A stretch of DNA of 64,000 nt from an uncultured cyanobacterium. Its GTDB lineage: Bacteria; Cyanobacteriota; Cyanobacteriia; PCC-6307; Cyanobiaceae. The stretch's first letter is position 1. Every line of letters begins with the position of its first letter. The notes under the pieces were generated by a model. That model was not told where the DNA came from. It saw only the letters and a list, made by a program, of their open reading frames with translations, and searched no databases. The DNA lies in assembly GCA_963765575.1 (NCBI GenBank), contig CAVXWZ010000002.1, positions 635,216-699,215 of the forward strand, in the 5' to 3' direction. A program made the position numbers and the translations under genes. Shown here piece after piece: positions 46,877 through 63,454 of the stretch.

Positions 46877-47530
46877 TCAGGGCAGGGTGTCCATGAGCGG
46901 CGCCGGTGCCAGGGGGGCCCGGCAGGCCTGCTGGCTGGCCAACCACCAGCCACCAACCCCAGCCACCACCAGCAGGGCGGCCATCGGCAGCAGGGCCTGC
47001 CGGGTGATGTCGAGGCTGATCCACTCGCCCCAGGCGCGCAGGGTGCGGTCGCGGTCGAAGCGACGGCGCTCCCGGACCTCCTCCCGCTGGCGGCGCTGCA
47101 GGGAGCGGCTCACCCAGCGCTCGAAGGCCCGCTTCTTGGTGACGGCCATCTTGCGCTCCACCTCCAGCAGGTGGCCGGCGCCGAGCTCGGGGTTGAAGGT
47201 GGTGATCAGCTCCAGGCTCTTGAGGAACATCTCCACCGCCCCGTCCTTGGCGCGGCGCTCCTCCTCCTCGAGCAGATCCCAGTCGAGTTCCGGGTAGAAG
47301 CGGCGGCGGTTGGCCGCGATCTGCTCCTCTGGCAGCTGGCCGGGCTCGCGCAACCAGCGGTCGGTGTTGGCGTCGAAGCGCCGCCAGTAAAGGAAAGGGT
47401 TGAGGTAGATGGTCTTGCCGCCCAGCTGGATGCTGTCCTGCTGGAGCCGACGCTGCAGCTCAGACTCGCTGGATGGGGCAGGGGCGGCGCTCACGGCACG
47501 GCAAACCGGGGACCCGAAGGTAACGGACAC
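46877..47530 (-). CDS. Hypothetical membrane protein
   Basis: YLNPFLYWRRFD..DRWLREPGQ, C-terminal TM helix; start uncertain. Confidence 0.7.
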   Translation of the reverse strand: MSVTFGSPVCRAVSAAPAPSSESELQRRLQQDSIQLGGKTIYLNPFLYWRRFDANTDRWLREPGQLPEEQIAANRRRFYPELDWDLLEEEERRAKDGAVEMFLKSLELITTFNPELGAGHLLEVERKMAVTKKRAFERWVSRSLQRRQREEVRERRRFDRDRTLRAWGEWISLDITRQALLPMAALLVVAGVGGWWLASQQACRAPLAPAPLMDTLP

Positions 47531-47557
47531 CCCCCGAGCTCGCCACGGGGTGGGGGG

Positions 47558-49147
47558 TCACTCCCACTCGATCGTGCCGGGCGGCTTGCTGGTGATGTCG
47601 AGCACCACCCGGTTCACCCCCTGCACCTCATTGACGATGCGGTTGGAGATGGTCTCCAGCAGGTCGTAGGGCAAGCGCGACCAGTCCGCTGTCATGCCGT
47701 CCTCCGAGGACACGCAGCGCAGCACCACCGGGAAGGCATAGGTGCGCTTGTCGCCCATCACGCCGACGCTGCGCACGGGCAGGAGCACCGCGAAGGCCTG
47801 CCAGATCTCGTGGTAGAGGCCAGCGTTGCTGACCTCTTCGCGCACCACCAGATCGGCGTCGCGGAGGATGTTGAGCTTGTCGTCGGTGACCTCACCGAGG
47901 ATGCGGATCGCCAGACCCGGGCCCGGGAAGGGATGGCGGCCCACGATCTCTTCCGGCAGGCCCAGGGAGCGGCCCACCTTGCGCACCTCGTCCTTGAACA
48001 GGCGGCGCAGGGGCTCCACCAGCTTGAACTGCAGATCCTTGGGCAGACCGCCGACGTTGTGGTGGCTCTTGATCTTCACCGCCACCCGCTCGCCGGTGCG
48101 GGGATCGACGTTGGTGTCGGCGCTCTCGATCACATCGGGATAGAGGGTGCCCTGGGCCAGGTAGTCGAAGGGGCCAAGTCGCTTGCTCTCCTGCTCGAAC
48201 ACGCGAATGAATTCGGCGCCGATCAACTTGCGTTTCTCCTCCGGATCAGTGATGCCGGCCAGTTTGCTGATGAAGCGCTGGCGGGCATTGATGTACTCCA
48301 CTTTGATGTGGAACTTGCGGTCGAAGAAGTCCATCAGAAACTCAGGCTCACCCTTGCGCATGAAGCCCTGGTCAATGAACATGCAAGTGAGTCGATCGCC
48401 AATCGCCCGGTGCAGCAGGAAGGCCAGGGTTGAGGAGTCGACGCCGCCGGAGAGCGCCAGCAGCACCCGTTTCTCACCCACCTGGCTGCGCACCTCGCCG
48501 ATGGCTTCGTCGATGAAGGCGGCGGTGGTCCAGTCGGCTTCGCAGCCGCAGATGTGATACACGAAGTTGCGCAGCATCGCCATGCCGCAACTGGAGTGGA
48601 CCACCTCGGGATGGAACTGCACGCCGTAATGGCGATTGCCGTGATCGGCCACCGCCGCCTCCGGCGTGTTGTCGGTGTGGGCCAGGCGCACGAAACCCGG
48701 CGGCAGCCGCTCCACCGAATCGCCATGGCTCATCCACATCGTCGAGCCCTCGTCGACGTTGGTGAGCAGGTCGGTGGGGTCGTCGACATGCAGCGCCGCC
48801 TTGCCGTATTCCGCCCGCCCCGCCGCCACCACCGAACCGCCCCGTTGCTGCACCATCAGCTGCATGCCGTAGCAGACCCCCAGCACCGGGATGCCCAGCT
48901 CCCAGATGCCCGGATCACACACCGGCGCCCCGTCCTCGTAGACCGAACTGGGGCCGCCGCTGAGGATGATGCCCCGGGGGGCGAGCTGGCGCAGCTGCTC
49001 GGCGCTCGTGGTGTAGCTGATCACCAGCGAGAACACCTCGGTTTCGCGCACCCGCCGGGCGATCAGCTCGGAGTACTGGGAGCCGAAGTCCAGGATCACG
49101 ATCGCCGGATGGCGGGACGATTGCGAGGCGGCGTCGATCACGGGCAT
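47558..49147 (-). CDS. guaA: GMP synthase (glutamine-hydrolysing)
   Basis: [42 protein letters not shown]. Confidence 0.98.
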
Positions 49148-49174
49148 GGGCGCTGGGCGGGCCGGCGTTGAAGC

Positions 49175-50314
49175 CTAGGGGGGGCCCTCGGGGGGCTCGA
49201 CTGCCGCGCCGCTGAGGGCTGCCAGCAACCGCTCACCCTCAGGTCCGCAGGCCCGCACCCGGCGCTGGCGATCGAACAGCACCGCCCCCACCGCCAGCGG
49301 GCCCGGCTGGCCGTGGCTGCGCAGGTAGGCCTGGCTGCGGTGCTCGATCGCCGTGGCGATCCGGGTCCGCAACCGCTCCGCCAGCGCGGGCTGCTGCTGC
49401 TCCAGCGCGCTGAGGGCCGTGTCGACGCTGGTGGCGGCATGCAGCCGGGCCAGCTCCACCCCGCCCAGGCCCTCCAGCGCCGCCAGGGCGGTGAGCACCT
49501 CGGCGCGGCCATCGGCCAGGTGGTGGTGGGTGTGGAAGATGCCACCGGCCAGCTTGATCAGCTTGCCCTGGACGCCGAACAGCAGCAGCCGCCGCACCCC
49601 GGCCTCGGCGGCCGCCACCAGCAGGGGCCCGAGCCAGTTGCCGGCCTTGAGCAGCAGGGCGGCCGGCAGACCCAGTCGCGGCGCCAGGTCGAGGCCGTTC
49701 TCGCCGATCACCAGCACCAGATCACCGCCGAAGTCGGCCGCGGCGGCGCGCTGGCGCAGGCTGGCCAGGGCCGCCTGCAGCTGCTCGGGGGCGGCGCTGC
49801 GCTGCACCTCGGCCTGGGTGCCGATCAGGGCCAGCCCCTCCACCACGCCGAAGGCGGCGTTGCTGGTGCGTTCCGCCAGGCGGCGGCCCTCCGGAATCGT
49901 GAGCTCCAGCCCCAGCCGCCGCCCGGGCGGCACCAAGGGCCGCAGGTTCCACTCCAGCAGCTGGCGCGCGTAGCCCGACAGGCAGGCCTCACCGCTGGCC
50001 TCGATCACCCCCACACCGGCGCCGGCCCGCAGCTCCAGCCAGGGGCCGTCACCTTCAAGCCAGCGCGCCTGCACCCACAGGAGCAGATCCCGGGTGAGGT
50101 CGAGCACCCCTGCGCCGGGGTCGCAGCGGGCCATGGCCAGGGCGCTGCCATCGCCCAGGGGAGCCGCCGCCTCGATCGGGATCAAGCGGGGCTCGGCGCC
50201 GGTATCCAGCCGCAGGGGCTGCTCCCGCGCCACCGGCTCCCGCAGCAGCCCCTGCAGGGCCGCCCGCGCCGCTGCGGCGCACCACACCGGCAGGGTGTAG
50301 CCGCCCTCAGCCAT
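49175..50314 (-). CDS. cbiD: Cobalt-precorrin-5B C1-methyltransferase
   Basis: GYTLPV, LDLTR, AERTSNAAFGVVEGLALIGT, GKLIKLAGGIFHTH. Confidence 0.93.
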   Translation of the reverse strand: MAEGGYTLPVWCAAAARAALQGLLREPVAREQPLRLDTGAEPRLIPIEAAAPLGDGSALAMARCDPGAGVLDLTRDLLLWVQARWLEGDGPWLELRAGAGVGVIEASGEACLSGYARQLLEWNLRPLVPPGRRLGLELTIPEGRRLAERTSNAAFGVVEGLALIGTQAEVQRSAAPEQLQAALASLRQRAAAADFGGDLVLVIGENGLDLAPRLGLPAALLLKAGNWLGPLLVAAAEAGVRRLLLFGVQGKLIKLAGGIFHTHHHLADGRAEVLTALAALEGLGGVELARLHAATSVDTALSALEQQQPALAERLRTRIATAIEHRSQAYLRSHGQPGPLAVGAVLFDRQRRVRACGPEGERLLAALSGAAVEPPEGPP

Positions 50315-50430
50315 CGATGCGGTGTGCGCTGGTCATTGGGGGGGCTGGGTGGACTGTTTTTTATGGTGGTCGACTGTGGCGCCGCCGGGCGCACCCTCCA
50401 ACACTCCGCCTCGCCCCCGCCACTCCCGCC

Positions 50431-51582
50431 ATGCAGGACAAGCTCGCCCTGATGATCCCCGGCCCCACCCCGGTGCCGGAGACCATCCTGCAGGCCATGG
50501 GCCGCCACCCGATCGGCCACCGCAGCGCCGACTTCCAGGCGATCGTGCGGCGCACCAGCGAGCAGCTCAAGTGGCTGCATCAGACCAGCGGCGATGTGCT
50601 GGTGATCACCGGCAGCGGCACCGCCGCCATGGAGGCGGGGATCATCAACGTGCTGAGCCGGGGTGAGCGGGTGCTCTGCGGCGACAACGGCAAGTTTGGT
50701 GAGCGCTGGGTGAAGGTGGCGCGGGCCTACGGGCTGGACGTGCAGGTGATCCAGGCGGAGTGGGGCCAGCCGCTCGATCCCGAGGCCTTCCGCGCCGCCC
50801 TGGAGGCCGACACGGCCAAGGCGATCAAGGCCGTGATCCTCACCCACTCGGAAACCTCCACGGGCGTGATCAACGACCTGGAGACCATCGCCCGCCATGT
50901 GCGGGCCCACGGCACGGCCCTGGCGATCGCCGACTGCGTCACCAGCCTGGGAGCCTGCAACGTGCCCATGGACGCCTGGGGCCTCGACGTGGTGGGCTCG
51001 GGCTCCCAGAAGGGGTACATGATGCCGCCGGGCCTGGCCTTCGTGGCCATGAGCGAGCGGGCCTGGCAGGCCGCCAAGGGCTCCGACCTGCCGAAGTTCT
51101 ATCTCGACCTGGCCAAGTACCGCAAATCCGCCAAGGCCGACAGCAACCCCTTCACGCCGGCCGTGAACCTCTACTTCGCCCTGGAGGCGGCGCTGACGAT
51201 GATGCAGGCGGAGGGGCTGGAGGCGATCTTCAGCCGCCATGCCCGCCACCGCGGCGCCGTCCAGGCCGGCATGACGGCCATGGGCCTGCCGCTCTATGCC
51301 GCCGCCGGCCACGGCAGCCCGGCGATCACGGCGGTGGCCCCGCAGGGCGTCGACGCCGAGACCCTGCGCAAGCGGGTGAAGGAGCGCTTCGACATCCTGC
51401 TGGCCGGGGGCCAGGACCACCTCAAGGGCAAGGTTTTCCGCATCGGCCACCTGGGCTTCGTGTGCGACCGGGATGTGCTCACCGCCGTGGCCGCCATCGA
51501 GGCCGTCGTGCAGGAGCTGGGGCTGCACAGGGCAACCCCTGGTGCCGGGGTCGCCGCCTGCGCCGCCGCCCTCGCGGGCTAG
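50431..51582 (+). CDS. Class V PLP aminotransferase (alanine/serine-glyoxylate type)
   Basis: MIPGPTPVP, HSETSTG, GSQK, PFTP, FRIGHLG. Confidence 0.92.
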   Translation: MQDKLALMIPGPTPVPETILQAMGRHPIGHRSADFQAIVRRTSEQLKWLHQTSGDVLVITGSGTAAMEAGIINVLSRGERVLCGDNGKFGERWVKVARAYGLDVQVIQAEWGQPLDPEAFRAALEADTAKAIKAVILTHSETSTGVINDLETIARHVRAHGTALAIADCVTSLGACNVPMDAWGLDVVGSGSQKGYMMPPGLAFVAMSERAWQAAKGSDLPKFYLDLAKYRKSAKADSNPFTPAVNLYFALEAALTMMQAEGLEAIFSRHARHRGAVQAGMTAMGLPLYAAAGHGSPAITAVAPQGVDAETLRKRVKERFDILLAGGQDHLKGKVFRIGHLGFVCDRDVLTAVAAIEAVVQELGLHRATPGAGVAACAAALAG

Positions 51583-51593
51583 GGTTCAACAAC

Positions 51594-51627
51594 TAAGGAA
51601 CCGCAGACGCGCAGTTCCTTATGTTTT
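51594..51627 (+). terminator. Hairpin with T-rich tail between the aminotransferase and tRNA-Gly
   Basis: TAAGGAAC (51594-51601) pairs with GTTCCTTA (51614-51621), followed by TGTTTT. Confidence 0.4.
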
Positions 51628-51699
51628 GCGGGTGTAATTCAGTGGTAGAATGTCAGCTTCCCAAGCTGAACGTCGCCGGTTCGAGTCCGGTCACCCGCT
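51628..51699 (+). tRNA. tRNA-Gly (CCC)
   Basis: GCGGGTGTAATTCAGTGGTAGAATGTCAGCTTCCCAAGCTGAACGTCGCCGGTTCGAGTCCGGTCACCCGCT; cloverleaf, anticodon CCC. Confidence 0.97.
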
Positions 51700-51957
51700 T
51701 TTAGTCCAGGCCTAAAATCTGTTGTTCTTCAAGCGATCATCTCTCTTGGCACGCGCTGGCAGCATGCCAGAGGCTGACTGTGGATAACAGGTCATGCCCG
51801 CGATTGGTGCAACCTTCTCACAGGGCTTCTCACTGCTGGGTCGTTTCATGGCCTGATTTGACCGTCCTTGATCGGTCCGGATCGCCGCAGTGGATCGATC
51901 GAATCCGAGACCTGAAACGCGACCTCTGATGCGGTCCTGAGCTGGCCTGACCCCCAG

Positions 51958-55976: not shown

Positions 55977-56216
55977 ATGTGCACCGACTGCGGATGCGCG
56001 CTGCAGGTGCCAAACACCCGCCACCTGGAGCTGGGCGCGGCCCTGCTCTCCCGCAACGACGCCCATGCGGCGGCCCTGCGTCAGCGCTTCGCCGCGGCGC
56101 AGCTGCCGGTGCTCAACCTGCTCTCCTCCCCCGGCTCCGGCAAGACGGCCCTGCTGGAGCGGCTGGGGCGGGAGTGGAGCGGCCCCGGCCGCGGTCCCGA
56201 AACGTTCACGAGGTGA
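55977..56216 (+). pseudogene. hypB: N-terminal fragment of a HypB-type Ni-insertion GTPase
   Basis: MCTDCGC metal motif, LLSRND, VLNLLSSPGSGKTALLE P-loop; stops at 79 aa. Confidence 0.85.
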
Positions 56217-56221
56217 GCAGC

Positions 56222-56611
56222 ATGAGCACCACCGCCCATGAGCTGGTTGAACGGGCCCGGGCCCGCATCGAGGCCGTGCCGCCGCAGCAGGCCTTCGAGG
56301 AGCTGTCCAGCGGCAAGGCCGTGGCCCTCGATGTGCGTGAGGCCTCCGAGTGGGAGGAGCACATCGAGGGCGCGGTGCAGGTGCCTCGGGGTTTGCTCGA
56401 ATTTGCCGCCGATCCCACCAGTGCGCGGCATCACAATGCGCTGGATCCCGGCGCTCGGGTGATCGTCTACTGCCGCTCCGGCACGCGCGCGGCACTTGCC
56501 GCACTCACACTCCAGACCCTTGGCTTTGCGCACGTCGCCAACCTCGAAGGCGGTTTTGTGGCATGGAAGGAAGCAGGCCTGCCCTGGATCGAGCACCACG
56601 CTGATCTCTGA
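56222..56611 (+). CDS. Single-domain rhodanese-like sulfurtransferase
   Basis: LDVREASEW..HIEGA..VPRGLLEF, YCRSGTR active-site loop, LEGGFVAW; RBS GAGGTG upstream. Confidence 0.9.
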   Translation: MSTTAHELVERARARIEAVPPQQAFEELSSGKAVALDVREASEWEEHIEGAVQVPRGLLEFAADPTSARHHNALDPGARVIVYCRSGTRAALAALTLQTLGFAHVANLEGGFVAWKEAGLPWIEHHADL

Positions 56612-56689
56612 CGCCCGGTCGGAGACCCTTCTTCCAAAGCCAGACCACAACACACTCAGGCTGCCCGCGGCGATTCTTGAAGAGCGAAG

Positions 56690-57030
56690 GGTTGCGGGCG
56701 GGATTCAGCAGGTCCTCGCAGGATTGGCTCAGCAGGGTGGCGCTGGGCCTGACACCGGCCAGCTGCAAGACGGTGGTGGCTCCCCAGGACTGCCCCATGG
56801 CCACAACCTGCTCTGGGCGCACTGGGCCCGGCAGACCCAGCTTGCCCGCGGCCGCGGCATCGATGGCCAAAGACACATCCAGCGGCCGAAGCTTGAGGTC
56901 TTCAGGATCGGGCGGCGGCACCCGGCCGGAGAGCATGGCTTGCCAGGTGGGCGCCCCAGCCCTCGAAGTTCACCGGGTCATCCCAGAGCCCATGGGAGAT
57001 CACCACGAGGCGGCCGTACCGCTGCTGCCG
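56690..57030 (-). pseudogene. Alpha/beta hydrolase remnant in two frames
   Basis: Frame 1 RLVVISHGLWDDPVNFEGWGAHLASH; frame 2 MLSGRVPPPDPEDLKLRPLDVS..GQSWGATTVLQLAG. Confidence 0.75.
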
Positions 57031-57778
57031 GGGGCCACAGGCTGACCCAAACCCCTGTGGCACCCCTTTAGGCAGTCGCCTCCTGCGGATGCCTCTTGCC
57101 ACCTCCGACATCTCGATCTCCTTGCTCGTGGACACCACCGCTGCCTTGGAGGAGATCCAGTCCCGCATCAATGCCAGGGCCTTCGCTGCTGTTACGGAGC
57201 CGACGAGGGGACCAGCCGTCCGGCACACTCATTGGCCTGGGCTGGTGTCTGCATCGAGCAAAGCAAACACGCGGCGATTCCGTAGGTGGCTGCAAGGCGA
57301 CGGACTTGGTACATGCTGAAGGAATTGTGCGTTACCAGTATCGCATTGGCATGCGTATTAGCAACGCCTGTCACCGGGTCTTGCGTTGGTCGACATGTGG
57401 CGAGTGTCTGTTGCCTGCTGTTATCAGCCAGTGGGCCGAAGATAGGGGTGCTAGGCAAACATCGCAAGAGTCGCGATTCACAACTCTCGTTGCAGTGGAC
57501 GAAAGATTCGTAGGTGGCTGGGTGCTGTAACCTAACCGGCGTTTGGCTCGCTTCCTGAACAACGGTCCAGCGATCCCCATAGCGGCGCCGGCTCCGACCA
57601 GTAGGAAACCGATCGGGGCGGGATCAAAGGGAAGGCCTCCTGGAGCGTGCCATCGGCCTCCACCCAGCCCCCGATCAGCCGGTAGGCTTTGTGATTCCAC
57701 ACTTGGGCTGGTGTTCAATGCCGAAGCTTCTGTTTTTATTCTAATTTAGGGGTTATTCTGGCGCTTCATGGGTATCCA

Positions 57779-58846
57779 TCATTCAAAACCAAATTCATCC
57801 ATTCTTATGGAATCAGCATCGGTATCGAATGGGGCAAATTGGATGCGTTGGTGTTGCAAAAAAGCATCGCTCACCCAATCATAAGTCTGGGCGGCGCGAT
57901 GCTTGCCCATGTCAAAGAGTGCGGGAATGTGTTCGACTTCATCAAGCCCCCATTCTCGATCCATATGGAAGTTGACGTGTCGATAACGGTCACCCAGTAA
58001 ATACTTAAGTGGCAAATGAAGGCCCTGGACCTGCGAAGTTCCCATCACATCAGCGACTCTAGGCGCCCAGTAAAGAATTCCAGCATCATCTCCTGGAGGT
58101 CTAAGAGAGAACTGTGCCCTCCCAGTTCCTACCGAAAGAAGATGAACTTCTTTAGTGCTATAGGTAGGGTCAATGCCTTCACGCGTACAAAACTGTTGTA
58201 TTCGCATCGCCTCACAAAACGCCAGCATGCTCGGATCAGCGGCCCATATCCCACCATCCACGTACGCATCGTCATGAATCAGCTGATGAGGGAAATATGT
58301 TGGTGCAGCCGTGGCAGCAGTGACAACATCAGAAATCCTTAGAGCCTGATCTCGTACTCCTTCAGGTAGGTGCCGCGACCTGAAAACATGTGGATGCCCA
58401 CGGCTGAGATTTACAGAGGGTATTATCAGCCGCGTGGTCTTAACCGAACCCAGTGTATACTCGGCGAAGGCATCACTGAATGCTGCTTGCAATGAGTTGG
58501 AACAGAAGCGAGAGCGGAATGCATAATCCAGGCTGATCCCTGTGCGCCACTTAATAAACCAGTCTGCCAGAGGAAAAACAATTTTGAGCGGACCCTTCGG
58601 TTTGTATGGTGGTCGTGGTGCAAATATCTGACGACCATAACGTACATAAAACTGATGCATATTTTCAGCGCTCAGTCCCAGTGCCAAGCCAGCTGCGATG
58701 ATCCCGCCGGTTGAGGTTCCTGCGATTAGATCAAAGCTTTCTACAACTGGGCGCCCTAGGCGCTGCTCCAACTCGCAAAGATAAGACGTAATAAAAGCAC
58801 CACGAATGCCGCCGCCGGCGAGAGAAAGGATCTGAAACCGTGCCAT
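57779..58846 (-). CDS. Patatin-like phospholipase, CBASS CapV-like
   Basis: ILSLAGGGIRG oxyanion loop, FDLIAGTSTGG catalytic Ser, IPSVNLSRGHPHVF..H, AAPTYFP, YVDGG catalytic Asp, LLSVGTG. Confidence 0.9.
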   Translation of the reverse strand: MARFQILSLAGGGIRGAFITSYLCELEQRLGRPVVESFDLIAGTSTGGIIAAGLALGLSAENMHQFYVRYGRQIFAPRPPYKPKGPLKIVFPLADWFIKWRTGISLDYAFRSRFCSNSLQAAFSDAFAEYTLGSVKTTRLIIPSVNLSRGHPHVFRSRHLPEGVRDQALRISDVVTAATAAPTYFPHQLIHDDAYVDGGIWAADPSMLAFCEAMRIQQFCTREGIDPTYSTKEVHLLSVGTGRAQFSLRPPGDDAGILYWAPRVADVMGTSQVQGLHLPLKYLLGDRYRHVNFHMDREWGLDEVEHIPALFDMGKHRAAQTYDWVSDAFLQHQRIQFAPFDTDADSIRMDEFGFE

Positions 58847-59210
58847 TAGCCGCAATCGCTGTAAAAGTCATAGCTTATGCGCACATCTAAATGCTCAAGC
58901 CACTGGCTGGCATGCGCGCGACTCGCAAAGATGACCAGTGTATTCGTAAATGATTGCATCATGCTTTAGGCAAGTCTTTTGATTCTATGCGATCGATGGA
59001 CGCATACTCTTTAATCGGAAGCCAGAACGGTGGGTCTCAGTTGATCTCCTGCGGTTCACCAGCCAAGTTAAAGTTACACAATGACGCAGCAAGGGGTCTT
59101 ATAGGGTTATGTATCACAGGCTCCAGGCTCCCTGACAGCTCCTTAATTACCACATGATAGCGAGGAATGGTAGATACGGGCTCAGGCTTCCTATTTTCAG
59201 AGGACAGGAG

Positions 59211-60077
59211 TCATATCGTCAGCCAATCATGAACGGAGAGAAAAGTCCGGAGACGTGAAACCGGCTCAGAGGCCTGCCGAGAGCGAGACCTCAGCCCAAC
59301 AGTGCGGCATAGGTACTGATCAGAGAATTCGACGTAGGCAATTCCAGCTAGCCCATTCCAAACAGGCATAATACTGACTCCCATCCCAACAGAGATTAAG
59401 TTAATCACCCATTCTTCGTGGTCTGCCCGATACACTACGTGGGGATGAGTTCCTGCCGCTGCGAACAGGTCCGGATATTCACGCCACACTTCACAAGCAA
59501 GCCTCTCTATGTAGGGCTCATCATCTAGATCACATAATCGAATGCTGGCAAGGTGGGTGAAACTATGGGAATGAGGCACAGCAAGCATTAATTGTTGCTG
59601 GAATAATAGTTCAGAATGCTTTTCTGGATCGGGCCCACTGACGGCGGTCAGAAGCAAATCCAATTGACCATCCTCCAGTAGATCTTGGAGCTGCTCAGGC
59701 AAACCATCGCACAATTCAAGGGTGACATCAGGGCATTCAGCTTGGAAAGCAGCGATTACGCGGGACAGGATAGAAATAGGAATAGTTCGTGTAGTACCAA
59801 GTCTAAGAATGGGATTATTGTGAAATGCTGTTAAGCCACGTAGAGCTGAATCATATTCTTTCAAGATCAGTCTGGCACGCTCTTCAAAAAACCGGCCTTC
59901 AGGGGTCTGAGCAGCACGCCGACCACCTCTCTCTAATAGCTTTACCTTTAACTCCTGCTCCAGTTTCTTGATGCCGGTTGACAGAGATGGCTGGGAGATG
60001 AACAAGTTCTCAGCCGCTTTGGTGAAGCTCCCAGTCTCCACGACTGCCAAGTAGTAACGAAGTTGATATATCTCCAT
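59211..60077 (-). CDS. LysR-family transcriptional regulator
   Basis: MEIYQLRYYLAVVETGSFTKAAENLFISQPSLSTGIKKLEQEL HTH plus effector domain; 288 aa. Confidence 0.96.
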   Translation of the reverse strand: MEIYQLRYYLAVVETGSFTKAAENLFISQPSLSTGIKKLEQELKVKLLERGGRRAAQTPEGRFFEERARLILKEYDSALRGLTAFHNNPILRLGTTRTIPISILSRVIAAFQAECPDVTLELCDGLPEQLQDLLEDGQLDLLLTAVSGPDPEKHSELLFQQQLMLAVPHSHSFTHLASIRLCDLDDEPYIERLACEVWREYPDLFAAAGTHPHVVYRADHEEWVINLISVGMGVSIMPVWNGLAGIAYVEFSDQYLCRTVGLRSRSRQASEPVSRLRTFLSVHDWLTI

Positions 60078-60081
60078 GAAG

Positions 60082-60147
60082 ATAGGCAGTATCTATGGAA
60101 CCTATCAAGAATATCGTATTGGCCTATGGAGTCAATGCCAGTATGCT
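60082..60147 (+). promoter_or_regulatory. LysR T-N11-A operator and sigma70-like promoter of the YHS gene
   Basis: ATAG-N7-CTAT at 60082-60096; TTGGCC (60119-60124), 17 bp, TATGCT (60142-60147). Confidence 0.65.
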
Positions 60148-60179
60148 ATTCAGGCAATCCATTGGGAGCACTTCCTGCC

Positions 60180-60593
60180 GTGCCACAGTTGCTGAACCTG
60201 AACGAACAAGGCTTGGGTTTGCATGGATATGATCCAGTGTCTTACTGGGAAGGCCAACCAACCCCAGGAGATGAGAACATCACGTCTAGCTACGAAGGCG
60301 CTATTTATCAATTTGCCAACAGAGAGCACAAGACAGCTTTTGATTCCAATCCCCAACGATTTACTCCTGAGTATGGTGGATTTTGTGCAGTAGCAGTGTC
60401 TGAGGGAAAGACTTTTCCGATTGACCCATTGAATTACTGCATTTCAGACGAAAGACTCTACCTATTCTACAACGGAAAACTTGGAAATACCAAGCCACAA
60501 TGGGAGCAGGATCCTCAGGCCCGGAAAGCCAGCGCTGACGAGCACTGGAACGCCAACGATCTTCTTATTGTTTATCCTAGCGCTGCCTACTAG
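60180..60593 (+). CDS. YHS-domain protein
   Basis: HGYDPVSYW, YEGAIYQFAN, F..NP..FTPEYGGFCAVAV, IDP, RLYLFYN; GTG start 60180 with GGGAG upstream. Confidence 0.88.
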   Translation: MPQLLNLNEQGLGLHGYDPVSYWEGQPTPGDENITSSYEGAIYQFANREHKTAFDSNPQRFTPEYGGFCAVAVSEGKTFPIDPLNYCISDERLYLFYNGKLGNTKPQWEQDPQARKASADEHWNANDLLIVYPSAAY

Positions 60594-61206
60594 ACCAAGG
60601 CTTTCTGATCCACGAAGCGTGCATATTGATCCGGTTTTCTGAGGGCTGAGTTTACTAGTCAGACTGAATCTGGATCATAGTAGCCCTCATGTTTCACTCT
60701 AGTATCCACCATGCCGTTGAAATATCTTTACCCTTTTGCGGCTTGATGGGTAATTCGCCATTTTCTTGCAATTGAAGTTAGTATCCAAGCCATTTAAACT
60801 TAGATTGGCGCTAGGCCTTGGGCTCATTCATCTGGTTTTCAAGTTAGTTGATCAACCGTAGTGCGACGGCCTCCATGCCAGCCATCACCCAAGCAATTGC
60901 TCTACCACTAGGGCTGTACTGTCTGGTCCTCATTTGTAGAGGCAAGAGACACGGCTTCTGCTCTCGCACGCCCTCGCCAAATTCTCTTGTCACTGAGAGT
61001 CTGTGAGACGACTAGGCCTAGTGATTACACCCCATGCATGGATATAAGCTAGTATAACTAGTTATCTGTGCAGGCTGGATCTGATAAGTCTGCCAACTCA
61101 ACTGAATATCAAATACTTACTTTCAGTGATAGGGCGTCCACAAGTCCCATGAGGCACCTCTTTGCATTGGGCGAACGGTTCGGAAGGGGCTGGGTGCTGT
61201 GCCTCA

Positions 61207-61415
61207 TCAACATCTGGCTGGCTTCCTCCACAAGAGGCCGGCGGTCCCACTCACTTTACCTGCTCCTCCCAGGCGGTGGCTGATCGGGATCAGCGTGAAA
61301 GCCTCCCGGAGCGTGTCATCGGCCTCCACCTGCGGCCCGACCAGTCGGTAAGCCACGGCGTATCCACCACGCAGGCAAGCAGCAGCAGCGAGAGGCGGAT
61401 GAGCGTGCGTTTCAA
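61207..61415 (-). pseudogene. Frameshifted DUF3955-like small membrane protein
   Basis: TTG-start MKRTLIRLSLLLLAC, then in another frame YAVAYRLVGPQVEADDTLREAFTLIPISHRLGG. Confidence 0.55.
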
Positions 61416-61457
61416 TGCCGCAGCTGCTGGCATGAACAAAATGTTGGCAAGCCAGGC

Positions 61458-62267
61458 TCAGGCGGCTAGAACCAGCAATGTAAATAAGCCACATCCGAAC
61501 AGGAACGAGCGGTAGCAGGTCTGGTTGGCGTCGGGTAATTCCCGTCTCAGCACATTGAGGATGATGCTGCCGGCAAGGAATGACCAGATCACGGCCAAGG
61601 CGGTGGCATCCACCTCGATCACAAGGCCCAGGGCTGTACCCAGAAGCACTGCGGCCGCCAGAATCCAGCGACCATAACATTGATACAGCACCGCAAAGTG
61701 CTCATGAAAAGACGTATCAATAATAAAGAAATGCAATCCAACCGCCATGAAAAACAACAGGCAACCAAGCACCGTGTGATGGCTGAGGTCTTGCAGCAGA
61801 TACCCGAAGATCACATTCAGAGCGGCGAATGCTACCAGGCGGATCCAGAAGATGGCCTGGGGCGGCGAGGAGACGCTGTAGTTATTGCTGCGCTGCGAAG
61901 TCCCCATGCGCCTACTTCTCATGATATCCAGTGAGTAGAAGGCCACCAGACCAGCCAGAGCCATCAGATAGATATGGTTCTCGATGAAGACCAGGGGTGT
62001 GCCGATCGCGTTCTGGTGGGCCTGATGTTCCGCGAGCTCCGGGAAGACCTCCATGAATACATAGGTGATCGACACTCCCCCGGCAAAGGAGGTCCAACGG
62101 AACAGGGGGATGATCTGAAAAAGGGGCAGCCTGGTGCCGATGATGTGCAGCAGTGCCAGAGCGCTGCCAAGCAGCACGGCTGGCAGCCAGGCCATGCCCT
62201 CATCACCGGTGGATGCCATCAGATGGGGGGCGGAAGCCATCCAATCGGTCATCGCTGATTGGTTCAT
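61458..62267 (-). CDS. Uncharacterised multi-pass membrane protein (ZIP-like fold suspected)
   Basis: About 7-8 hydrophobic segments; WTSFAGGVSITYVF..FPEL, GLHFFIID, FLAGSIILNVLRRELP; ATGA overlap with upstream gene. Confidence 0.75.
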   Translation of the reverse strand: MNQSAMTDWMASAPHLMASTGDEGMAWLPAVLLGSALALLHIIGTRLPLFQIIPLFRWTSFAGGVSITYVFMEVFPELAEHQAHQNAIGTPLVFIENHIYLMALAGLVAFYSLDIMRSRRMGTSQRSNNYSVSSPPQAIFWIRLVAFAALNVIFGYLLQDLSHHTVLGCLLFFMAVGLHFFIIDTSFHEHFAVLYQCYGRWILAAAVLLGTALGLVIEVDATALAVIWSFLAGSIILNVLRRELPDANQTCYRSFLFGCGLFTLLVLAA

Positions 62268-63025
62268 GCCCGATGTTCAGGATTGCCGCGCTCCTTGTGG
62301 CATCCCGCCTCCCACTGGGCAGGAACGTTGCCGTGGGCCGGCACGCCTCCCCCGTCTTTCAACAGGCGGGCCAGGTGCAGACAGTTCCAGGCAAGAACAA
62401 CGGTGTTCCGATTGGTGAAATCATTCTCAGGCCCACCCGAGCCCGGATCACGGTAGGAAGGCCCCGGACCGGCCTCGCCCACCCAGCCAGCATCCGCCTG
62501 GGGGGGGATCGTGTACCCGATATGCGAGAGCGAAAAGAGGATGTTCATGGCGCAATGCTTGATGCCATCTTCATTACCGGTGATCAACGTGGCTCCCACC
62601 TTGCCATAGTCGCGATACTGCCCCTTCTCGTTCACGAGGTGGGTATAGCCGTACATGCGCTCCAGCACCCGGTTGCACACGGAGGTCTTCTCCCCCAGCC
62701 ACACGGAGGTGCAGAGCAGCAGGATGTCGCATTGGTCGACCTTGGCCTGGATCTGGGGCCAGTCGTCGCGGTCCCATTCCGGCGTCTGGCTCATGTCGGT
62801 GCCGAGACCTGCGGCGAGGTCATAGTCGACAGGGCGGATCAGCTCATAGCTGACACTCACCGAATCGAACACATCACAAGCGATAGAGATCACCCCTTCA
62901 GTATGAGATAGAACGGGCGTGCGATTAAGGGTGCAATTAAGAATCAGCGCCTTCAGATCCGAATAACGAGCCGAAGTAGATTCGCCGAGACTGGCAATAA
63001 TCTTCGAACACTGTCTACTGGTCAT
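62264..63025 (-). CDS. Flavodoxin-like / NADPH-dependent FMN reductase family protein
   Basis: LILNCTL..SHT, DDWP, DILLLCTSVWLG, GKVG..ITGNEDG, GPGPSY. Confidence 0.85.
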   Translation of the reverse strand: MTSRQCSKIIASLGESTSARYSDLKALILNCTLNRTPVLSHTEGVISIACDVFDSVSVSYELIRPVDYDLAAGLGTDMSQTPEWDRDDWPQIQAKVDQCDILLLCTSVWLGEKTSVCNRVLERMYGYTHLVNEKGQYRDYGKVGATLITGNEDGIKHCAMNILFSLSHIGYTIPPQADAGWVGEAGPGPSYRDPGSGGPENDFTNRNTVVLAWNCLHLARLLKDGGGVPAHGNVPAQWEAGCHKERGNPEHRA

Positions 63026-63108
63026 TTCACCACGACTGCAAGAGTTTTACGCTACTTCAGGAGGGGCACTAAGGCGACCAGCCGCAGCGGAAGTTGATCA
63101 GTGGCATC

Positions 63109-63454
63109 TCAAGGCCGCAGCTGCTCCAGCATGGTTCGGGTGAGCGCCAGCTCACAGCGTGTCGTGACGATGCCGTAGCCCGTGCCCTGGAAGCTCACCG
63201 ACTTGGCATAAGCGCACACCTTGCGGCGTTCGGCGCGGAAGGCTTTCGCCTGCTCTTTCGGGTCGGCACTCGTTTGGTAAAAGCCGGTGAGGTTGTCGCG
63301 CCAGAGTGTCTGGAAGGTCTCGCTGGGCACCTGCCCGGCCTCGCTGGCCACACGTACCAGGGCCTTCTCCAGCTCCCGGTCCACGGCCTCGAGGGCTTCC
63401 ATCAAGCAGCGGGTCCAGGGTGGCCGCCAACAGCAGGGGGAGACAGGAGCGCAT
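63109..63454 (-). pseudogene. LprI/DUF1311-like secreted protein remnant
   Basis: Signal-like MRSCLPLLLAATL out of frame with RRKVCAYAKS..GTGYGI..RCELALT. Confidence 0.5.

Follow-up and report, generated by a model that had tools for sequence, protein, structure and literature searches.

We analysed a 64,000-nucleotide stretch of DNA (the window) from an uncultured cyanobacterium of the family Cyanobiaceae, which forms the end of contig C2 (CAVXWZ010000002.1, positions 635,216 to 699,215) of assembly GCA_963765575.1, a genome of 2.71 Mb that is 99.97% complete and has a GC content of 69%. Near its right end lies a cassette of three genes encoding a patatin-like phospholipase (the lipase), a LysR-type regulator and a YHS-domain protein. 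A first-pass annotation of the window had described this block as GC-poor, and the measured values agree: the GC content is 0.50 for the patatin gene, 0.49 for lysR and 0.48 for the YHS gene (about 49% for the cassette), with 0.44-0.46 at third codon positions (GC3), versus 0.67-0.71 for the contigs of the genome, while a backbone gene (49175-50314) has 0.76 (GC3 0.93). The lipase is a member of the protein family of CapV, the phospholipase effector of the anti-phage system that signals through cyclic oligonucleotides (CBASS), and is CapV-like in structure, and it stands outside any CBASS system, in a lineage whose loci have no adjoining nucleotidyltransferase of the cGAS/DncV type (CD-NTase, the CBASS cyclase). 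The features of its gene are as follows.

57779..58846, minus strand: patatin phospholipase of the CapV clade, 355 aa, member of the cyclase-free lineage (profile matches, trees)
58712..58714, minus strand: catalytic S45, equivalent to S58 of AbCapV (alignment to 8ZR9; 53/53 in the core clade)
58349..58387, minus strand: predicted CapV-specific nucleotide-binding loop V154-D166 (AbCapV F147, K149, D159; mapped to AbCapV, PMC12480259)
58256-58258, minus strand: catalytic partner D197 (motif position)
58211-58213, minus strand: pocket residue E212 (mapped to AbCapV)
58004-58006, minus strand: pocket residue K281 (mapped to AbCapV)

The reading frame is intact, as first proposed, with all catalytic motifs in place: GGGIRG (residues 11-16), GTSTG (S45) and DGG (D197). 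It is matched by Pfam Patatin (E 8e-22) and by the PADLOC CBASS phospholipase profile (E 2e-75), and it passes the NCBIfam CBASS_lipase model (NF041079) with 211.3 bits at a cut-off of 200, which is also passed by 7/7 other lineage members tested and failed by the other patatin of the host genome. The best solved relatives, by sequence and by fold, are CapV-type lipases; the AlphaFold model (mean pLDDT 75.7, below 50 for residues 242-275) supports the fold only and was left out of our reasoning on pocket geometry. With AbCapV (PDB 8ZR9/9JEH, PMC12480259) and the structures 9KH6/9KH7/9WN0/9WN1 the lipase has in common the single patatin domain, the catalytic S/D pair and the oxyanion motif, together with the nucleotide loop (K-x-x-H...D) and residues that correspond to AbCapV E207, R279 and W255. 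It differs from CapV in an insertion of about 22 residues near 80-105, which it shares with cyclase-linked planctomycete relatives, in a valine at the position of F147 and in AADP for the ANNP that follows DGG. We considered whether the insertion forms an amphipathic membrane helix and rejected this (hydrophobic moment 0.28). The first-pass annotation had pointed to the unusual motif after DGG, and this observation stood in part: the first N of NNP is gone in all cyclase-free groups, whereas NDP at this place is shared by the solved lipase 9KH6/9KH7 (FANDP). The mark of the cyclase-free lineage is the missing first N and not NDP.

Identity to the lipase is 59-79% among the 119 closest other proteins, nearly all of which are 354-357 aa long, and the three among them that carry an organism name are from Planctomycetota. 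Loci for comparison were drawn from genomes, metagenomes and viruses, plus 25 of 401 Pirellulales genomes. In a FastTree phylogeny of 223 sequences, from which those shorter than 270 aa were excluded, the lipase fell, with support 0.998, into a clade whose 67 members have no neighbouring cyclase, placed next to cyclase-linked, mostly planctomycete lipases and apart from ordinary patatins. A quick IQ-TREE search of 60 rows gave the lineage an SH-aLRT of 100 and its grouping with cyclase-linked lipases 93, and split off the ordinary patatins with 99. Stand-alone patatins of the ordinary kind, such as the genome's own L004 and viral ones, have the fold, the catalytic motifs and the cyclase-free state in common with the lipase, but they lack the nucleotide loop and occupy that separate branch. 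The CapV-clade assignment of the first-pass annotation is thus borne out by the CBASS_lipase score, the matches to solved structures and both trees. The nearest relatives outside the lineage, again in both trees, are the lipases of planctomycete cyclase-E2-lipase CBASS operons (L020, L243, L244, L246), which share the insertion and the pocket and retain the cyclase and E2 genes that the window lineage is without. Hence the trees place a mostly planctomycete, well supported lineage among the CBASS lipases. The lowest pairwise identity within it is 37%, and no cyclase is found across it; therefore the loss of the cyclase is old, with the enzyme retained since. The 34 viral loci held distant patatins only, the 50%-cluster search added no context for the lipase, and a full-text search, covering few subscription journals, found no literature on this lineage.

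We also noted a second, separate cyclase-free CapV group (L037, L038, L048, L051, L095, L102, L103, L143), which has DGS for DGG and ARNP, often lies near ABC-transporter genes and occurs in Alphaproteobacteria and on soil contigs.

A CD-NTase adjoins the lipase gene in none of the 42 lineage loci, 28 of which have at least 2.5 kb on both sides, as compared with 85/120 more distant loci (140-240 bits); the count of 42 includes the frameshifted L013 and L014 and the fragment L015 by our own assignment, and L242, which duplicates L031, was excluded. The CD-NTase that a CBASS system requires in the same operon is thus missing. The lineage neighbours include pyridine nucleotide-disulphide oxidoreductases, OsmC-hydrolase fusions, flavodoxins, thioredoxin reductases with a cyclic nucleotide (cNMP) domain, malic enzyme, isochorismatases and VTT proteins. 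Redox genes were found within 5 kb in 8/17 core and 6/25 outer lineage loci, versus 0/9 and 0/91 cyclase-linked loci. Conversely, restriction or CapP/CapH-type genes accompany 31/91 cyclase-linked loci and 0/42 lineage loci, and PADLOC matched a single one of 109 lineage neighbours, a subtilase, while recognising 6/6 controls. In the window, none of five neighbours gave a PADLOC match to Cap2, Cap3, E2, HORMA or other defence-island genes. These redox- and stress-rich surroundings are compatible with the stress module that the first-pass annotation had put forward as one option. As to the linkage to LysR and YHS proposed with it, the survey of neighbourhoods found a YHS gene in 0/42 lineage loci and a LysR gene in 1/42, the latter a distant protein (27% identity) beside a catalase-peroxidase. 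Among the outer lineage loci, four (L021, L233, L234, L240) have a thioredoxin-reductase-like protein with a cyclic-nucleotide-binding domain beside the lipase.

The absence of a CD-NTase extends from the window to the whole host genome, where none was found by the SMODS profile, by two purpose-built profiles or by a 57-sequence CD-NTase profile that detected both positive-control genomes; a search with the DncV-like Pfam model (PF21654) matched no control and was uninformative. NF041117 gave one weak match in the genome (E 1.4e-4), a 122-aa ORF which we take to be a minimal nucleotidyltransferase antitoxin. In this the lipase differs from CapV, as it has neither CD-NTase nor Cap2/3 nearby or in the genome, and its neighbours are not of the defence type. 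Among 39 genomes that carry a lineage lipase (omitting G375, a fragment, and G722, which is cyclase-free and outside the lineage), a CD-NTase was found elsewhere in four and not detected in 35, including the single-contig genomes G547 and G302. Each of the four adjoins its own effector-like or Cap-like ORF, judged from translations, and in G563 this neighbour is a canonical CapV. According to PMC12480259, CBASS occurs in more than 10% of genomes, and the carrier frequency is about this value, which is a general rate and not the local background. The activation in trans by a CD-NTase that the first-pass annotation considered is disfavoured by the 35/39 carriers without a detected one. The complete planctomycete genome G302 holds two lineage lipases (L019, L235).

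Five contacts to 3',3'-cyclic GMP-AMP (cGAMP) are described as essential in AbCapV in PMC12480259: F147, K149, D159, E207 and R279. By alignment they map to V154, R156, D166, E212 and K281 of the lipase, the last placed by helix register and therefore mapped with less certainty, so that four of the five are kept in kind and F147 is replaced by V154. Within the core clade (n=53), R156 is found in 53, D166 in 50, E212 in 53 and K or R281 in 52 sequences, and only 19/82 charged positions are as conserved as those of the pocket. In a relative that differs at 37/355 residues, the four charged pocket residues are identical. Furthermore, the nucleotide loop is missing in most of 26 outgroup patatins. 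The first-pass annotation had suggested, as one option, control by LysR in place of control by a cyclic nucleotide; the retained pocket residues point the opposite way. The host genome encodes one diadenylate cyclase and one GGDEF protein, and a diadenylate cyclase was present in 5/5 carriers tested. Since a CBASS phospholipase that depends on a diadenylate cyclase has been described (PMC13069673) and the host has such a cyclase, a host nucleotide would be the simplest candidate ligand. That system, CBASS-DAC (Liu-DS2), resembles our case in that its patatin effector is driven by a diadenylate cyclase and not by a cGAS-like enzyme; it differs in having the cyclase in its operon and an anti-phage role, whereas the window lipase has no linked synthase, reaches 76 bits on NCBIfam DS2_1_antiphage, whose cut-off is 400, and resides in a genome whose only diadenylate cyclase is on another contig.

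The other two genes of the cassette are intact, as the first-pass annotation had stated, and form a divergent pair.

59211..60077, minus strand: LysR regulator from a subfamily of cyanobacteria, members of which lie opposite peroxiredoxin-like, YHS or ferritin-like genes (homologous loci)
60126..60593, plus strand: YHS-domain protein, divergent from lysR (start codon 60126 or 60135, uncertain)
60082..60096: ATAG-N7-CTAT LysR-type box, one of two perfect copies in the genome
60113-60127: second copy of the box, with one mismatch
58847..59210: lysR-lipase spacer, 364 nt (best box match two mismatches; no terminator-like site)

LysR proteins typically control their own gene as well as the divergent one. 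The perfect box is located just upstream of lysR, and it is also found upstream in 7/13 homologous lysR loci, which come from 11 of 300 other cyanobacterial genomes; no box lies ahead of the lipase in the spacer, and a promoter scan stayed at chance level (4 found, 4.3 expected). The genes faced by the LysR in the 13 loci are peroxiredoxin-like in seven, YHS in one and ferritin-like in one. Locus L306 has a divergent lysR-YHS pair without a patatin, its YHS protein being 60% identical to that of the window, and a patatin within 1.5 kb was found in 0/13 homologous lysR loci and in 0/22 other YHS loci. Thus the LysR target is likely the YHS gene, and lysR-YHS is likely a separate cyanobacterial module that shares the cassette. 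The box matches the E. coli OxyR half-site as given in PMC12754779, and the pair shares with OxyR-type divergent pairs this box and divergent redox-type targets; the LysR scores 101 bits against an OxyR cut-off of 329 and is not OxyR. Viral relatives of the LysR were not found. Together the loci L303-L315 represent a LysR subfamily of cyanobacteria in which the ATAG-N7-CTAT box is conserved and the gene faced is mostly of the AhpC/TSA family. A metatranscriptome run (X14) yielded two identical 151-nt contigs (58736-58886 and 59066-59216), which are no evidence of transcription and were left unused.

The three genes have a broken copy of a small DUF3955 gene on either side, and these two copies, which are 70% similar over 202 nt, delimit the cassette.

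57486..57731, minus strand: left broken DUF3955 copy, left boundary of the cassette (cassette-free junction at 57687)
61158..61428, minus strand: right broken DUF3955 copy, right boundary of the cassette (cassette-free junction at 61380)

A 987-nt contig of run X3 connects 57687 directly to 61380 and represents a cassette-free allele. Diverged relatives of the cassette were recovered at an 85% likeness threshold: a contig of run X4 links the 5' end of the lipase gene to the 3' end of lysR with about 10% differences, and another, spanning lysR and YHS, differs at 187 of about 1280 nt. In a second assembly, relatives of the lipase and of the LysR, with 90% and 89% identity, are on contigs that are both 298,059 nt long. 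The three-gene cassette is thus found in diverged relatives as well; the lipase-LysR/YHS linkage was observed among close relatives of the cassette alone and is absent in the 42 lineage loci and the 13 lysR loci. Relatives of the lipase were found in 0/300 genomes of the order and 0/400 of the family (an overlapping sample), a DNA comparison with 31 genomes of the genus gave no match to the lipase region, and no plasmid record held a lipase relative at E 1e-30. Consequently, given the cassette-free allele, the diverged copies and the absence of the lipase from the order and family genomes, the cassette is rare and mobile, and its lipase was likely acquired from outside the cyanobacteria. An origin as an integron cassette was rejected, there being no attC core-site pair at the cassette ends and the genome's intI lying about 370 kb away.

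The sequence itself shows that the lipase belongs to the clade, has no cyclase, keeps its catalytic and pocket residues, lies among genes not of the defence type and is of foreign origin in this picocyanobacterium. Our preferred explanation, to which we give somewhat less than an even chance, is that a CapV-derived lipase has taken on a stand-alone role in stress, its activity probably under the control of a host nucleotide, for instance cyclic di-AMP (c-di-AMP) or cyclic di-GMP (c-di-GMP). The enzyme would lie dormant until such a nucleotide (most plausibly one of these two) occupies the retained pocket; by analogy to AbCapV, the ligand would bind between dimers, oligomers would form and the lipid pocket would open, whereupon S45 and D197 would cut membrane phospholipids. 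To judge by the neighbourhoods, the role might be membrane remodelling under redox or general stress and not abortive infection. The wider proposition, that a CapV lineage lost its cyclase, kept its pocket and now couples c-di-AMP or c-di-GMP to phospholipid hydrolysis under stress in Planctomycetota, with transfer to Oligoflexales and picocyanobacteria, is possible and distinctly more doubtful. Several observations weigh against the preferred explanation. E212 is also common in the outgroup (17/26), and V154 lacks the aromatic ring of F147, I, V or L being also the norm in the cyclase-linked set. In the 14 outer lineage sequences the pocket is partly lost (G for R in 4/14, D in only 5/14); hence such lipases can persist without it, and its residues could be structural. 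As reported in PMC12480259, c-di-GMP failed to activate AbCapV. Diadenylate cyclases are near-universal (11/14 control genomes) and so their presence in carriers does not discriminate, and a lipase that answers to a constantly present housekeeping nucleotide could be toxic. The redox seeds were drawn from the same lineage loci with self-hits counted, 28/42 loci are without any redox seed, and no single partner is conserved. Moreover, most carrier genomes are incomplete assemblies, and the IQ-TREE tree was built without bootstrap and with an outgroup of our choice.

The same pocket decay in the equally cyclase-free outer lineage, and the loss of the first N of NNP, speak for an alternative in which the stand-alone lipase, though likewise reused, has a vestigial or structural pocket and is regulated through its expression level, through redox state or through substrate, not by a nucleotide, and a CapV point variant has DncV-independent physiological effects according to PMC9095652; however, the four charged pocket positions are among the 19/82 highly conserved ones in the core clade and remain unchanged in the relative with 37/355 differences, and we regard this explanation as unlikely. 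The lipase could instead have remained an effector against phage, working by itself or in trans and triggered by the cyclic nucleotide of a cyclase that is distant or escaped detection, or by a change that phage induces in a host nucleotide. It passes the CBASS_lipase cut-off and keeps the pocket, four carriers have a CD-NTase elsewhere, the island is interrupted here by the contig end, and the same DUF3955 site in another genome (G099) holds a TIR effector-like gene; the 35 carriers without a detected CD-NTase, two of them single-contig, the single defence-like neighbour in 109 and the lack of restriction or CapP/CapH-type genes make this improbable. We give little credence to control of the lipase by LysR together with YHS, as first supposed. 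Its adjacency to lysR recurs in the diverged X4 contig, as does that of lysR to YHS in another, the two relatives in the second assembly are on contigs of equal length (their neighbourhood was not seen), and, as no terminator-like site separates lysR from the lipase, read-through into the latter is possible. Nevertheless, the box lies only between lysR and YHS, the homologous lysR and other YHS loci have no patatin within 1.5 kb and the lineage loci no YHS, the affinities of the lipase are planctomycete and those of the LysR cyanobacterial, and the spacer is not conserved, being swapped for 326 other letters in a diverged relative. A CBASS operon remnant with recent loss of the cyclase, also among the earlier suggestions, would fit a decaying island and the cyclase-E2-lipase operons of the nearest outside relatives. 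Decay by deletion is unsupported because the whole lineage lacks the cyclase; all closest relatives with DNA in hand are cyclase-free, the lineage goes deep and shows no variation in its catalytic residues, so that this explanation is largely refuted and has a minimal chance.

The unusual feature of the locus is the lineage and not the LysR link. CapV is rarely observed outside CBASS, according to PMC12480259, and here it forms a coherent deep lineage outside CBASS whose members are nonetheless named 'CBASS cGAMP-activated phospholipase' by NCBI; consequently this annotation over-calls CBASS in these genomes. The lineage offers a graded series, from cyclase-linked lipases through cyclase-free lipases with a pocket to cyclase-free lipases with a decayed one. 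If the pocket answers to a housekeeping nucleotide, an immune effector would have been rewired to ordinary physiology, and the lipase would be a new type of receptor for that messenger.

The cassette is part of a wider island, of which two further features are listed here.

51628..51699, plus strand: tRNA-Gly(CCC), start of the wider island
62264..63025, minus strand: flavodoxin/FMN-reductase-like gene, not part of the cassette (four other loci have 57-60% homologues next to the lipase)

Contig C5 (1-4594) repeats window positions 47113-51709 up to the tRNA-Gly(CCC) with 99.3% identity and then continues into backbone genes, which suggests that one assembly holds island-bearing and island-free alleles. 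At its other side the contig of the window terminates inside a transposase, so that any remaining part of the island is unseen. The flanks, described earlier as decayed, are so only partly, since the rhodanese, MscS, 269-aa membrane protein and flavodoxin genes are intact ORFs. The flavodoxin was rejected as a dedicated partner of the lipase: it is found in 4/42 loci, but it is a common picocyanobacterial gene (a 35-member cluster) of higher GC outside the cassette, and we read its recurrence as a shared pool of stress genes. At 90% the flavodoxin clusters with proteins of Synechococcus and Cyanobium, by which we take the host to be a picocyanobacterium. The lprI-DUF3955 junction (57486-57731, 61158-61428, 63104-63125) looks like an insertion hot spot, where run X3 has contigs that omit the lipase cassette and others that omit the gene pair at 61.4-63.1 kb. 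In the genomes G099 and G1108, lprI is joined to an intact DUF3955 gene; in G099 a gene for a CAP12/Pycsar-type TIR effector adjoins the site (L299:7424-8209), and in G1108 an integron-type integrase gene (L300:9677-10651) is about 1.1 kb from it, a 72% homologue of which is encoded in the window genome at C2:324869. The intact rhodanese gene has pieces of hypB and a hydrolase gene on its two sides (55977-56216 and 56505-56936); full copies of both are on contig C11. The 269-aa membrane protein (61458-62267), which has no Pfam, NCBIfam or PADLOC match, resembles ZIP-type transporters, and an ORF similar to it faces a related LysR in L315.

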